A stretch of 15,785 bases of DNA, taken from the IMG/VR virus record IMGVR_UViG_3300030706_000110, one strand, 5' to 3'. This DNA is from a virus. Position numbers and translations under genes: made by a program. This document shows positions 9,730 to 12,843 of this stretch, in pieces; position 1 is the stretch's first letter, and the number at the start of each line of letters is the position of its first letter. The notes under the pieces are model-generated. The model saw nothing but the letters and a program-made list of their open reading frames with translations, had not been told where the DNA came from and made no database searches.

Positions 9730-10022
9730 CGCTTCGCTCCGTGGGACCCGGCCGTTAGCGCTGCGCGCTCCAGCGCCCATTTGCCGGCGTGCTTCCCGAT
9801 GAGCGCGCTCATCACGTCGATGTGCTTGCCTGACATCCCGGCCCCGCGGTTCGCGATCATTTTTTCCAACTCCGACGCATCCGGATGGGCCGCGATCAAT
9901 TCCTCGACTTGCTTCACAGCGTCCCACGCCGCGATGGCCTGGTACGTGACCTCCTCGGCGGCCATGATCGCCGTCGTCACCTTCGCGTTCAATTCACTCA
10001 ATACATCGCGCGAAGAGATCAT
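9726..10022 (-). CDS. Small helical protein P2, 98 aa, paralog of 8918..9154
   Basis: Track ORF. ATGA overlap with the PRTase stop. Paralogy with P1 was read from the sequence. Confidence 0.8.
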   Translation of the reverse strand: MISSRDVLSELNAKVTTAIMAAEEVTYQAIAAWDAVKQVEELIAAHPDASELEKMIANRGAGMSGKHIDVMSALIGKHAGKWALERAALTAGSHGAKR

Positions 10023-10816
10023 CGGAGTGGCTCTCCAGTCTTCATGTCGATCCCCTCGTAGAGCAACTCGTCGATCGTGAAGAGCGCGCGAAGAGGCGTC
10101 CCATCTGAAAGCGTCTCGGGCCGCTCGCGGCGCTTGTCGATCACGGTGATGATCCCTCGCACGTCGAGGCCCGCGCCGCGAAGGTGCCCGGCAGCGGCCG
10201 TAGCGGATTTGCCCGCCGACACGATGTCGTCGAGGAGCACGACCCTCGCGCCCTTCGAGATACAGCCCTCGATAAACCCCGGCGTGCGGCCGTGATCCTT
10301 CGAAGCTTTCCGTACGTAAAGGATGTCGAGCTTACGGCCGTTCTGATCCGCGTCCTCGACCACGCTCTCGCGCGCGGTGTAGAAAGCGAGGACGCTCGCC
10401 AAATGACAACCGCCGAGCACGATCCCGGCGACGGCGTCCACGGGCGCGAACGCGAGAAGCTCTTGGTAGAGTCGCGGCGCGAGGAGTTCGTGCAGGTGTC
10501 CGCTCATGCAGGCGCGCTTGATGTTGAAGTACTCCGTGGTCCGGCCGCCGCCGGGCGCCTCGAAGTACGTGCCGGGAGCCGAGACTTCCAGGCTGTGGAG
10601 CCGGATGAGCCCGAGAAGCTTCGTGCGATCGAGGATGGGTTCGGGCAGGATGAACGTCGCGAGATCTTCGTCCTTGAAGGCTCCCACTTGCCACGTGTCG
10701 CTCCACGACGCTGGCTTGGCGAGACGCTCGTCGTGCGTGTGCGGGTAGTCTTTCGCGACTGCCCGACACTGCGACGGCAGCAGCGGGCAAACGAATGGAC
10801 GCTTCTTCGTCACCAC
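10019..10816 (-). CDS. Phosphoribosyltransferase (type I PRTase) domain protein with a ~90-aa N-terminal extension
   Basis: Canonical PRPP-binding motif VVLLDDIVSAGKSATAAAGHL, and the fold order resembles orotate/purine PRTases. GTG start. The second GTG at 10813 makes a GTGA overlap with the upstream mini-gene. Confidence 0.85.
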   Translation of the reverse strand: MVTKKRPFVCPLLPSQCRAVAKDYPHTHDERLAKPASWSDTWQVGAFKDEDLATFILPEPILDRTKLLGLIRLHSLEVSAPGTYFEAPGGGRTTEYFNIKRACMSGHLHELLAPRLYQELLAFAPVDAVAGIVLGGCHLASVLAFYTARESVVEDADQNGRKLDILYVRKASKDHGRTPGFIEGCISKGARVVLLDDIVSAGKSATAAAGHLRGAGLDVRGIITVIDKRRERPETLSDGTPLRALFTIDELLYEGIDMKTGEPLR

Positions 10817-10944
10817 CGGCCCCTATACCCGCGCACCGCGCGGTGAACGACGCTCTCGGAACGCCCCGTCACGTGCGCGATGTTACCTTCTGCACGAAGC
10901 TCGCGCATGAGCGCCCTCTCCTCATCGGTGACTCGCCTACGCAT
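10810..10944 (-). CDS. Unlisted 44-aa helix-turn-helix mini-protein (MRRRVTDEERALMRELRAEGNIAHVTGRSESVVHRAVRGYRGRW)
   Basis: Not in the track because it is under 60 aa. A perfect GGAGGA lies 6 nt upstream of the ATG. The HTH-like pattern is NIAHVTGRSESVVHRAV. It overlaps the SWIM gene end by 8 nt and the PRTase start by 4-7 nt. Confidence 0.6.
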   Translation of the reverse strand: MRRRVTDEERALMRELRAEGNIAHVTGRSESVVHRAVRGYRGRW

Positions 10945-11419
10945 CGCTGTCCTCCGTGAGTGATCTCAACCGATCGATTTCCTGGAGAAGCATGCGGATC
11001 GCGAAGAGACCGTTGTTGTGAAGCCACCATCCGTGTGGACGCTTGGCCCACTCGCGCACGGTCTTCTCGAACGCTCTCGGCGCCATCGGTTCAGGAGTCG
11101 GGACCGCCAAGCTAATATGCACCGCGAGCTGGTGCTTGCAATATGGAGGGATCCACCCGAACCCTTCATCATCGTCGGGACACCCTTCGCCGTCGGGACA
11201 CGTGCAGGTCGACTCCCCCGAGGACGAGATCTCCACGACGTACGAATTTCCTTCGGAGCCCTCGATGAGGTACGAGCGGCCGTCGCGGGGCCCGGTGAAG
11301 ACCGCGATGACGTTGTCGATCAACATGCGTGCGCGCTCGAGCCGCGAACGAAGCAGAGGATATTTCTGCGCCCACTTCGTGACGGCCTCGTCGATCATCG
11401 CTTGCCGCACTGCTTCCAT
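10937..11419 (-). CDS. SWIM zinc-finger protein, about 160 aa (MEAVRQAMIDEAV...)
   Basis: The track ORF is 10937..11533. The in-frame ATG at 11419 makes a TGATG overlap with the RtcB stop. The SWIM-type CxC-x(n)-CxH motif is STCTCPDGEGCPDDDEGFGWIPPYCKHQLAVH. Confidence 0.75.
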   Translation of the reverse strand: MEAVRQAMIDEAVTKWAQKYPLLRSRLERARMLIDNVIAVFTGPRDGRSYLIEGSEGNSYVVEISSSGESTCTCPDGEGCPDDDEGFGWIPPYCKHQLAVHISLAVPTPEPMAPRAFEKTVREWAKRPHGWWLHNNGLFAIRMLLQEIDRLRSLTEDSDA

Positions 11420-12843
11420 CAGTCGGCGCCTTTGATGTTCGCAACCGGGTAGAGCCGCTTGTCGATCCGCGCGATGTCCTCGGCCTCGAGCACCGCGAGC
11501 ACCTCGTCGAGGTCCTTGTAGACGTGCGCGCACTCGTCGAGCGGCACGTGGTTATGGTTTCCGATAATACCCTCGACCGGGACGCCGTTGAACACGCGCT
11601 TCACGGTCGCCATCTCCTCGTCGATGAAGAGCTGCTTGTGCTCTAACTGCCGCTTCGCCTTCCCGCGCGCCATGGTGCGGCCCGAGCCGTGGTTCACGGA
11701 GCACGCAGTCTTGTGCGCCCCCTCCTTCGGGAAGAGGATCGCGGCGCCCTCGTACATCGAGCCTGGGATCAGGCACGGATGGCCCGTGTGCTCCCACAGC
11801 GTGCCGTAGAGATCGGGGTGCCCAGCAGGGAAAGCGCGCGTCGCGCCCTTCCGGTGCACGAAACCCTTCTTCCTCGTGCCGTCGGGAAGAACGAGCGTCT
11901 CTTCTTGAACGAGGTTATGGCTGATCTCGTAGTAGACGTGCACGTCCGCACCGAAGACTTCCTGCGTCGCCTCGCGGATCCCATTCACGATGATGTGGCG
12001 ATTCGCGACGGCGAAGTTCGCAGCGCTGTTATGGTGGTTCCAGTACTCCTTGCCGAGCGGCTCGTCCGCGCGGAGCCACGAGCCCTCGCGGTGGCTCGCC
12101 GGCATGCCCCGCAAGCGCGCGCCCTCGTAGAAGAAGTGGTTGGCGGTCTGCCAGCCGTAGCCGCGGCTGCCGCAGTGGACCATCACGTAGACTTCGCCTG
12201 AGTCCTTGTCGCACTGCATCTCGACGAAGTGGTTGCCTCCGCCGACGGAGCCGAGCTGGCCGATGACGCTCGAGTACGCCTTGTCGATCTTGGTCAAGTC
12301 CGCGGCCTCGTCCACGGGGATGTACTGACGCTCGCAGAGACCAGCTTCCACGCCGATGGCCTTCGCGCCGAAGCGCAGGATCTCGTTCGCTTGGTCTTTT
12401 CCGAACTTCGGCATCAGCGCTGGGCGGTTATGCCCCTTGCCGGTCGCGATGCGCTTCTCGACCTCCTTGACCCAGCGCTCACGCTCGTACTTGCTCTTGA
12501 TCGACCCCGCGTTGAGATCCGCCTTCATATGAAGGATCCCGCAAGAAATATCGTACCCCGAGGCGCCCTGGATGATGGTGTCCTCGGTCACGATGACCGA
12601 CCCGATGGGGACGCCGTACCCGGAATGACAATCGGGCATCAAATACGCGCCGATCACACCCTCGTAGCTCGCGCCGAATGCGATCTGCTTCCAGCAGTCT
12701 TCTTCAGAAGAAGCGAAGAGGGCTTCCGAGAGAAACGCGTGCGCCTCCACCTTCATGTCGCCCACCTTCGGCAGCACGTAGTGATTGTCCGAGACCTTCG
12801 TGACCGCGTACTTGAACGACATGGCATCCTCTACGTCCGACAT
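11419..12843 (-). CDS. rtcB: RtcB family RNA 3'-phosphate ligase, 474 aa
   Basis: RtcB hallmark motifs were read directly: MPDCHSGYGVPIGSV, GSVGGGNHFVEMQ, HCGSRGYG, NHGSGRTMARG. The length is typical of archaeo-eukaryal-type RtcB. Confidence 0.93.
   Translation of the reverse strand: MSDVEDAMSFKYAVTKVSDNHYVLPKVGDMKVEAHAFLSEALFASSEEDCWKQIAFGASYEGVIGAYLMPDCHSGYGVPIGSVIVTEDTIIQGASGYDISCGILHMKADLNAGSIKSKYERERWVKEVEKRIATGKGHNRPALMPKFGKDQANEILRFGAKAIGVEAGLCERQYIPVDEAADLTKIDKAYSSVIGQLGSVGGGNHFVEMQCDKDSGEVYVMVHCGSRGYGWQTANHFFYEGARLRGMPASHREGSWLRADEPLGKEYWNHHNSAANFAVANRHIIVNGIREATQEVFGADVHVYYEISHNLVQEETLVLPDGTRKKGFVHRKGATRAFPAGHPDLYGTLWEHTGHPCLIPGSMYEGAAILFPKEGAHKTACSVNHGSGRTMARGKAKRQLEHKQLFIDEEMATVKRVFNGVPVEGIIGNHNHVPLDECAHVYKDLDEVLAVLEAEDIARIDKRLYPVANIKGAD

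Follow-up and report, generated by a model that had tools for sequence, protein, structure and literature searches.

The window considered here is the whole of a 15,785-nt stretch of DNA (one strand, 5' to 3') with the IMG/VR record name IMGVR_UViG_3300030706_000110, in which the gene of an RNA ligase, RtcB, is followed by those of a SWIM-like zinc-finger protein, a 44-aa helix-turn-helix (HTH) peptide, and a phosphoribosyltransferase (PRTase) of the PyrE type. The favored reading, to which a probability of roughly 0.6 may be given, is that this cluster is one stretch of a co-directional array of accessory genes in an uncultured, high-GC phage that is large and probably huge, and that the genes within it are most likely independent of each other. 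They are read in this way because overlapping junctions are common in the element, no signals set the four genes apart from their neighbors, the SWIM-like gene stands at this site in the window's lineage only, RtcB and the PRTase occur apart elsewhere, and the defense models of PADLOC lend no support to a joint function. A defense module would be a tempting explanation for such a cluster, but it is unsupported and is removed by the analysis.

An earlier note on this DNA had described the four genes and their overlaps of 1-8 nt, and had taken this tight coupling to suggest a concerted RNA- or nucleotide-directed function. The genes and overlaps are indeed where that note placed them, on the minus strand. 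With the junctions read straight off the sequence, the features are as follows:

11419-12843, minus strand: RtcB, 474 aa
10937-11419, minus strand: SWIM-like open reading frame (ORF), 160 aa from ATG
10810-10944, minus strand: HTH mini-gene, 44 aa
10019-10816, minus strand: PRTase, 265 aa from GTG
10643-10816, minus strand: N-terminal extension of the PRTase, residues 1-58
10019-10642, minus strand: PyrE-like catalytic core of the PRTase, residues 59-265
9726-10022, minus strand: P2, 98 aa
RtcB/SWIM-like junction: TGATG, 1-nt overlap
SWIM-like/HTH junction: 8-nt overlap, with a GGAGGA Shine-Dalgarno sequence 7 nt upstream of the HTH ATG
HTH/PRTase junction: 7-nt overlap (GTG at 10816) or 4-nt overlap (GTGA, GTG at 10813)
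PRTase/P2 junction: ATGA, 4-nt overlap

However, the inference of a concerted function from the overlaps does not hold, because the same kind of overlap is a habit of the whole element: in a near-identical 23-kb contig, 24/42 same-strand junctions overlap by 1, 4 or 8 nt. In addition, a scan for promoters and terminators gave no above-chance signal that separates the four genes from their neighbors.

Linkage of the genes among related contigs

Five related contigs (L007, L008, L010, L011, and L012) share with the window the gene order PadR-RtcB-PRTase-MVP-like, in which MVP-like stands for a major-vault-protein-like gene. The gap between RtcB and the PRTase, at 10810-11419 in the window, is a variable slot in these contigs, and it is occupied as follows:

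Window: the SWIM-like and HTH genes
L007, L008, and L010: the HTH gene only
L011 (351-1094): a PF09414 ATP-dependent RNA ligase and a 109-aa gene
L012 (1606-2310): a 45-aa membrane peptide, an RLIG1-like ligase, and three further genes

The synteny of RtcB and the PRTase is confined to this one narrow clade. There is no RtcB within 10 kb of a 55%-identical PRTase, none near the PRTase relatives at 41% and 34% identity, and none near the PyrE-like genes of IMG/VR contigs of 43-407 kb (0/11), which were found by an alignment-based scan (a scan of IMG/VR with the single PRTase protein gave no match). Likewise, RtcB is near 0/80 of the closest cellular PRTase loci. Altogether, 14 viral or virus-like contigs (L009, L015, L016, L019-L029) have the PRTase without RtcB, and a 252-kb IMG/VR contig, L030, has an 83%-identical RtcB without the PRTase and no other gene in common with the window within ±10 kb. 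With no co-occurrence beyond close relatives, the four genes, as judged from these sequences, fail the test for a conserved module, and the synteny within the clade is explained as well by the shared ancestry of whole arrays as by function. Thus, what had appeared as tight coupling reduces to shared ancestry in one clade together with the genome-wide habit of overlap.

It is distinctly unlikely, then, that the RNA ligase and the PRTase constitute one counter-defense module, in which the PRTase might, for example, rebuild nucleotides from bases freed by host nucleosidase or glycosidase effectors while RtcB or Rnl mends the RNA and the mini-HTH protein regulates the whole. Such a module would be consistent with the order RtcB-(HTH)-PRTase-P2, which the window shares with L007, L008, and L010, with the presence of a PF09414 ligase (L011) or an RLIG1-like gene (L012) in the slot, and with the fast evolution of the PRTase block (52-77% identity). 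It would also be consistent with L024, a distant IMG/VR contig of 91.6 kb (at 1420-8205: a polynucleotide kinase-phosphatase [PNKP], a gap, a 5'-nucleotidase, a PyrE-like gene, PyrF, and an Rnl-type RNA ligase), where Rnl is 1 kb from the PRTase and PNKP is 3.6 kb upstream. However, it is PyrF (orotidine monophosphate [OMP] decarboxylase, E=7.7e-41) rather than the ligase that directly adjoins the PRTase in L024, the 34%-identical relative overlapping the start of PyrF; together PyrE and PyrF are the UMP-synthase pair. Furthermore, the synteny of the whole array from PadR to MVP in all members of the clade amounts to roughly one evolutionary event, neither RtcB nor Rnl is present within 6 kb (10 kb for L009) at 13 other viral or virus-like and 80 cellular PRTase loci, and L030 keeps RtcB without the PRTase. 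Finally, RNA ligases are common in large phages, and occasional proximity is to be expected (PMC7824862).

The proximity of RNA ligases to the PRTase, which is seen in about two independent contexts of roughly fifteen, is not regarded as significant because large phages often carry several such ligases. It does keep alive a slim chance that the PRTase is functionally linked to RNA repair. An equally slim chance is given to a more specific proposal, that a fast-evolving enzyme of the PyrE fold, together with its extension and its coupled mini-HTH gene, came to serve in RNA-damage counter-defense alongside interchangeable ligases (RtcB, Rnl, RLIG1-like), and not in plain pyrimidine synthesis, in a single clade of uncultured large phages. 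If a link between the PRTase and RNA ligases were true, it would give a PyrE-fold enzyme a new counter-defense role; no paper joining RtcB, phage, and orotate phosphoribosyltransferase (OPRT) was found in the literature.

A separate observation concerns L016, a 56-kb contig in which (L016:1-6558) a PyrE-like gene is found with an ADP-ribosylglycohydrolase, R2K ATP-grasp proteins, and a cytidylyltransferase-like gene; its PyrE-like protein is also on a 404-kb contig. This run may be a nucleotide- or NAD-related accessory cluster of its own.

The phosphoribosyltransferase

The placement of the PRTase in a family rests on profile and fold searches. The best NCBIfam model is pyrE TIGR00336 (74.2 bits, residues 85-250), while the Apt and Hpt models score 17-31 bits. 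When a profile of the family was compared with the Protein Data Bank (PDB), the top 19 matches were OPRT, the best at 1.4e-33 (Corynebacterium and M. tuberculosis OPRT), and adenine and xanthine PRTases appeared in the same search only at ~1e-4 to 1e-5. The AlphaFold2 (AF2) model has a confidence score (pLDDT) of ~90 or more over most of residues 59-253, and the top 50 Foldseek matches to it in the PDB are all OPRT, with a TM-score of 0.81-0.85 to the M. tuberculosis enzyme (5hki/5hkl). The segment R169-K170-A-S-K173-D-H175-G176 aligns to the catalytic loop of E. coli PyrE (R99/K100/K103/H105), and D196-D197…S200-A-G202 aligns to its motif for phosphoribosyl pyrophosphate (PRPP; D124/D125/T128/G130), with S at the position of T128. 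The numbering of the E. coli sequence used in this alignment agrees with the published catalytic residues. Fold, catalytic loop, and PRPP motif confirm the PRTase label of the earlier note, and profiles and model together argue that the protein is an OPRT (PyrE)-type enzyme. That note had regarded an unambiguous housekeeping grouping without lineage-specific linkage to RtcB as fatal to its proposal; what was found is the grouping with PyrE on the one hand and a synteny with RtcB in one lineage on the other.

The nearest cellular relatives lie at 80 chromosomal loci, at 29-41% identity and on contigs of up to 9 Mb, nearly all of them from Myxococcota; in a set of 185,579 prokaryotic species, each represented by a single genome, there is no relative of >41% identity. 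The three Myxococcota neighborhoods that were inspected are housekeeping in character (DAHP synthase, rRNA methylase, TyrRS, glutamate-cysteine ligase). This pattern is what would be expected of the host's own pyrE, and with chromosomal PyrE of Myxococcota as the nearest kin, it suggests both where the viral gene came from and which group the host may belong to. The indication that the phage clade possibly infects Myxococcota, drawn from this PyrE-like homology, is of modest value in itself.

Among viruses, the Prochlorococcus phages P-SSM2 and P-SSM7 have detectable homologs that are annotated as OPRT, and another viral PyrE-like locus has a dihydroorotate dehydrogenase nearby. Along with the PyrF pair in L024, these relatives favor a pyrimidine role as the most likely one. 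In such a role, a divergent, host-derived PyrE would combine orotate or a close analog with PRPP to yield a nucleoside monophosphate, and would raise the supply of pyrimidine nucleotides during infection as an auxiliary metabolic enzyme, like cyanophage pyrE. Gene identities, motifs, fold, and the distribution of the linkage were observed directly; the substrates of this enzyme and of RtcB, the timing of their action, and the host of the element are deduced.

The earlier note had also given the PRTase an extra N-terminal domain. There is an extension of 58-62 aa, and it appears to be coding, but no domain could be demonstrated in it. It is missing from all 18 homologs, which begin at about residue 62, and it is predicted by AF2 with a pLDDT of <50. 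Third-position GC in the PRTase frame is 0.76-0.86 across it, and no in-frame ATG, GTG or TTG is present between V44 and the conserved first helix. Because the latter interval lacks a start codon, at least ~15 extra residues are obligatory, and some of the extension must, on this argument, be translated; together with the third-position GC, this led to the rejection, in part, of the idea that the extension is an artefact of start-codon choice. The remote-homology check that the earlier note called for, an exhaustive phmmer search covering 1.84 billion proteins, yielded no relatives of its own for the extension. The only two matches, which would have made it TPR-like, were to 'LLPDQIRIKGKDHPHTL' repeats in large repeat proteins; their scores are inflated by repetition, and they were rejected. 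Nor does the extension resemble the genes that precede the PRTase in L011 and in L012. As far as these searches reach, it is an orphan.

Several observations weigh against the favored reading. The PRTase, at 74.2 bits, falls short of the pyrE TIGR00336 equivalog cut-off of 106.8 bits. E. coli R156, which contacts orotate, corresponds to K228 in the window and its closest homolog, although it is R in most. The N-terminal extension on a PyrE-like enzyme is unexplained, and there is no pyrF or other pyrimidine gene within the 23-kb contig or the window. The divergence of the PRTase-P2-g192 genes, where g192 is a 192-aa gene (52-77% identity versus 83-96% for other genes), is unusual for a plain metabolic enzyme. 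Ligases of three unrelated families, namely RtcB, the PF09414 Rnl (in L011 and the unrelated L024), and the RLIG1-like protein (L012), are next to or near the PRTase. As for the phage itself, the window shows no viral hallmark gene, and neither it nor the 23-kb contig has capsid, portal, terminase or tail genes.

Because its score is below the curated cut-off and R156, a substrate contact, is K, the PRTase is not filed as a pyrE equivalog. The same two findings bear on another hypothesis, which is considered unlikely. In this model, the PyrE fold has acquired an altered specificity, and instead of OMP the enzyme makes a non-canonical or modified nucleotide for modification of the phage nucleic acid, or a signaling nucleotide. 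Further differences could be read in this way, since T131 is K and 10-15 residues are inserted after the GGCHLAS helix, and so could the lineage-specific extension and the lack of a nearby pyrF. There is also a precedent: nucleobase PRTases associated with Ter systems have been described in jumbo phages (PMC7824862), and a signaling nucleotide has been proposed for PRTases of this kind. However, the catalytic loop and the PRPP motif are of the OPRT type, most homologs have R at the R156 position, one relative is paired with PyrF (L024), and the searches of the window turned up neither modification enzymes nor Ter genes.

The earlier note had instead pointed to the PRTases of retrons and ShosT-like systems. 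A toxin-antitoxin-like arrangement, with the PRTase as a ShosT- or retron-type toxic effector restrained by the HTH peptide or P2, is very improbable indeed. The small overlapping genes on both sides of the PRTase would suit it, and the sole match to a defense model in PADLOC is to ShosT (E=0.0021). However, this match covers 48 residues of a generic PRPP loop, and no partner is present: neither ShosA, nor a reverse transcriptase, nor any other PADLOC model matched, and Rfam gave no match either. The PADLOC comparison thus produced nothing convincing. In addition, the whole protein is OPRT at 1e-33 and by fold, its context is a viral accessory array, and the HTH gene is missing in L011, L012, and all of the more distant PRTase loci.

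The RNA ligase and the small genes

The identity of RtcB in the earlier note is well founded. The protein matches Pfam PF01139 over model positions 6-426 of 426 (E=1.7e-85, 288 bits, cut-off 27 bits) and phrog_1075 'tRNA splicing ligase' at E=3e-69, and it aligns end to end with RtcB of P. horikoshii (PDB 4dwr/1uc2). Six catalytic residues (D95, C98, H203, H234, H329, and H404) are identical in the two proteins; in the P. horikoshii enzyme, according to the established RtcB literature, D95 and C98 are metal-site residues and H404 is the histidine that is guanylylated. By these alignments, the window's RtcB is a full-length RNA 3'-phosphate/2',3'-cyclic-phosphate ligase of the long, archaeal/eukaryal type, and it is predicted to be enzymatically active; members of this family use GTP and Mn2+ to join 3'-P or 2',3'-cyclic-P ends to 5'-OH ends. 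Its relatives in L007, L008, L010, L011, L012, and L030 are 83-96% identical. Beyond these, 516 phage records match it, but identity to the RtcB of cultured phages is only 28-32%.

The role generally assigned to phage RtcB is the sealing of RNAs cut by host ribonuclease effectors. In the present case, RtcB would reseal RNAs, typically tRNAs, that such effectors have cut to leave 2',3'-cyclic-phosphate and 5'-OH ends, acting through a GMP-histidine intermediate in what would be a counter-defense role. In jumbo phages, RtcB, Rnl1, and Rnl2 are found in any combination and seem to be specialized for different RNase effectors (PMC7824862); the extra ligases of L011 and L012 fit this picture. Thus, the earlier suggestion of counter-defense is reasonable for RtcB alone, where it agrees with what is known of large phages (PMC7824862), but not for a joint function of the four genes. 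The slot beside RtcB, in which RNA ligases gather, is of modest value as a way into the diversification of RNA-repair genes in large phages.

The 44-aa HTH peptide of the earlier note proves to be a conserved gene, but its family label is sub-threshold: it matches HTH_38 (PF13936) with E=0.005 and 16.9 bits, below the 27-bit cut-off. Homologs of 50 aa, 89% identical and likewise only weakly matched to HTH_38, are located directly between RtcB and the PRTase in L007, L008, and L010; the window copy is 4 residues shorter, at the turn between the first two helices. Comparison with L007 and L010 gives 12 synonymous and 5 non-synonymous codon changes, and 15-16 of the 21-22 base changes are at third positions. 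Because homologs are conserved and the changes are mostly synonymous and at third positions, the ORF is taken as a real gene under purifying selection. It is absent from L011, L012, and every more distant PRTase locus, and in near-identical contigs it was skipped by the automatic gene caller, so that the recognition of a conserved 44-50-aa HTH gene is of modest value in its own right. Its product is a putative small DNA-binding regulator, which would be translationally coupled to its neighbors.

The SWIM zinc finger of the earlier note is a similar case. The ORF is below the Pfam cut-off for SWIM (PF04434; 14.4 bits, E=0.029, cut-off 19.6 bits), but a CxC…CxH signature (C72-x-C74…C94-x-H96) is invariant in six sequences, those of the window and five non-identical homologs with 43-57% identity. 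In the AF2 model (pLDDT 74.6), a four-stranded sheet is followed by a helix, with the first Cys pair closing the sheet and the C-K-H motif opening the helix, which fits such a finger; Foldseek found no significant fold match to the model in the PDB. The recommended homology check therefore gave homologs with the invariant signature and no known structure. 'SWIM-like' is a fair label, by motif and conservation rather than by curated threshold. The zinc loop of the window copy is longer by an acidic insertion of 9 residues. Homologs are found in L017 and L018, one a phage-like contig, the other a contig of 452 kb in which the gene lies in a transposase-rich region; neither RtcB nor the PRTase is near them. 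From this distribution, the gene appears to be an insertion at the RtcB-PRTase site that is specific to the window's lineage. A small, uncharacterized SWIM-like family, present in phage-like contigs and in the transposase-rich region of a 452-kb contig, is again a finding of modest value.

Downstream of the PRTase, P2 has no family match in Pfam, the phage orthologue groups or PADLOC, and it is kept in this position in L007, L010, and L011 at 52-65% identity. A paralog of P2, the 78-aa gene at 8918-9154 (minus strand), lies two genes downstream (score 158 versus 27±5 for shuffles) and is likewise without a family match. Between the relatives L007, L010, and L011, the PRTase, P2, and g192 (the block to 9151) are 52-77% identical, whereas identity is 83-96% for RtcB, the HTH gene, the MVP-like gene, and a gene of 168 aa. 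These values suggest that the PRTase-P2-g192 block is either evolving fast or has been swapped between phages.

The element and its likeness to known systems

The G+C content of the window is 62%, and nearly all of its plausible genes are on the minus strand. Several short metagenomic contigs are near-identical to it, and the 23-kb contig is 99.7-100% identical over the cluster part; a megablast search of the cluster against deposited phage genomes found no match at the DNA level. Outside the cluster, the following features can be named:

6062-8674, minus strand: MVP-like gene, 870 aa, 1.3 kb downstream of the cluster
894-1913, minus strand: SET-domain protein (lysine methyltransferase fold), Pfam E=1.4e-15, with a 51%-identical relative in L012
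13541-13963, minus strand: PadR-family transcriptional regulator, E=2.5e-12, kept upstream of RtcB in all related contigs
12861-13091, minus strand: 76-aa ORF in a 252-nt gene-caller gap upstream of RtcB in L001, with 66-73%-identical counterparts in L007 and L008

The last of these, given its counterparts, is probably a further real gene that was missed by annotation. The MVP-like protein matches MVP_shoulder (1.5e-29) and Vault_3 in Pfam, and eukaryotic MVP structures at ~1e-16. Its homologs of 40-44% identity are only in five IMG/VR contigs and in genomes of 462-735 kb that are labeled 'uncultured phage'; the huge-phage genomes concerned are LR756500, LR756501, and LR756503. MVPs of viruses are known from an earlier report (bioRxiv 10.1101/2023.11.10.566534). 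The MVP-like genes of other viral contigs were found without RtcB or the PRTase in their vicinity, and the window has no vault RNA (Rfam at E<=1) that might be a partner for RtcB or the MVP-like gene.

Just past the MVP-like gene, the window changes in its relation to L001: window 5960-15785 is 99.7% identical to that contig, while window 1-5960 matches it only in pieces of 78-90%. This suggests a boundary of recombination or strain variation at ~5960.

No structural gene came to light, and that the element is viral is therefore inferred from its context. This context points to a large phage because most genes are short ORFs that overlap and belong to no known family, because RtcB and the PRTase both match phage orthologue groups, and because the MVP-like protein and RtcB have relatives in viral contigs. 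The opposite case, that the element belongs to a high-GC bacterium (one of the Myxococcota, for example), whether as a plasmid, as an integrative element or as an island in the chromosome, is judged quite improbable. It would account for the lack of capsid, portal, terminase, and tail genes in the window and the 23-kb contig, and PadR, SET-domain, and MVP-like genes are also known in bacteria (bioRxiv 10.1101/872010). However, no relative of >41% identity is present in 185,579 representative cellular genomes, the nearest kin that RtcB and MVP have beyond the clade come from viral contigs of IMG/VR and from deposited genomes of huge phages, and the gene architecture is typical of phages.

An accessory array in a large phage can be compared with several known systems. 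The defense PRTases are the least like it. ShosTA and retron effectors share with the window's PRTase the generic PRPP-binding loop of type I PRTases, but the match to them is weak and local, their partners are absent, the whole protein is PyrE-like, and the context is viral rather than that of a defense island. With the SWIM zinc finger (PF04434), the window protein shares the invariant CxCxnCxH signature and, in its predicted model, a topology of strands followed by a helix; it differs in its sub-threshold score and in being a small, stand-alone protein with flanking helices and no fusion to a helicase, transposase or kinase.

Phage RtcB ligases, such as those of Caulobacter phiCbK-like phages, mycobacteriophages, Bacillus phage SP-10, and Halorubrum virus BJ1, have a full-length domain with the complete set of metal-binding and guanylylation residues, as does that of the window. 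The difference lies in the sequence, the 474-aa enzyme of the long archaeal/eukaryal type being only 28-32% identical to those of cultured phages. In comparison with phage RtcB loci and RNA-repair sets, the window also differs in its lack of a tRNA gene, RtcA, a Ro/TROVE protein or Y RNA (Rfam at E<=1 and ARAGORN for the RNAs). Its relatives nonetheless resemble the RNA-repair gene sets of jumbo phages in holding RtcB beside ATP-dependent RNA ligases (PMC7824862).

The PRTase is set apart from PyrE proper by K in place of R156, the orphan extension of 58-62 aa, the internal insertion, and the sub-cut-off score, and the available sequence of the element has no partner from the pyrimidine pathway. 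However, it has the fold, the PRPP motif, and the flexible catalytic loop of OPRT of the short M. tuberculosis and Corynebacterium type, and one of its viral relatives is paired with pyrF. In addition, a pyrE-type gene carried by a virus has its counterpart in the pyrE genes of the cyanophages P-SSM2 and P-SSM7. Thus, both of the enzymes on which the reading of independent accessory genes turns, phage RtcB ligases and phage pyrE products, belong to kinds of accessory gene that are already established.

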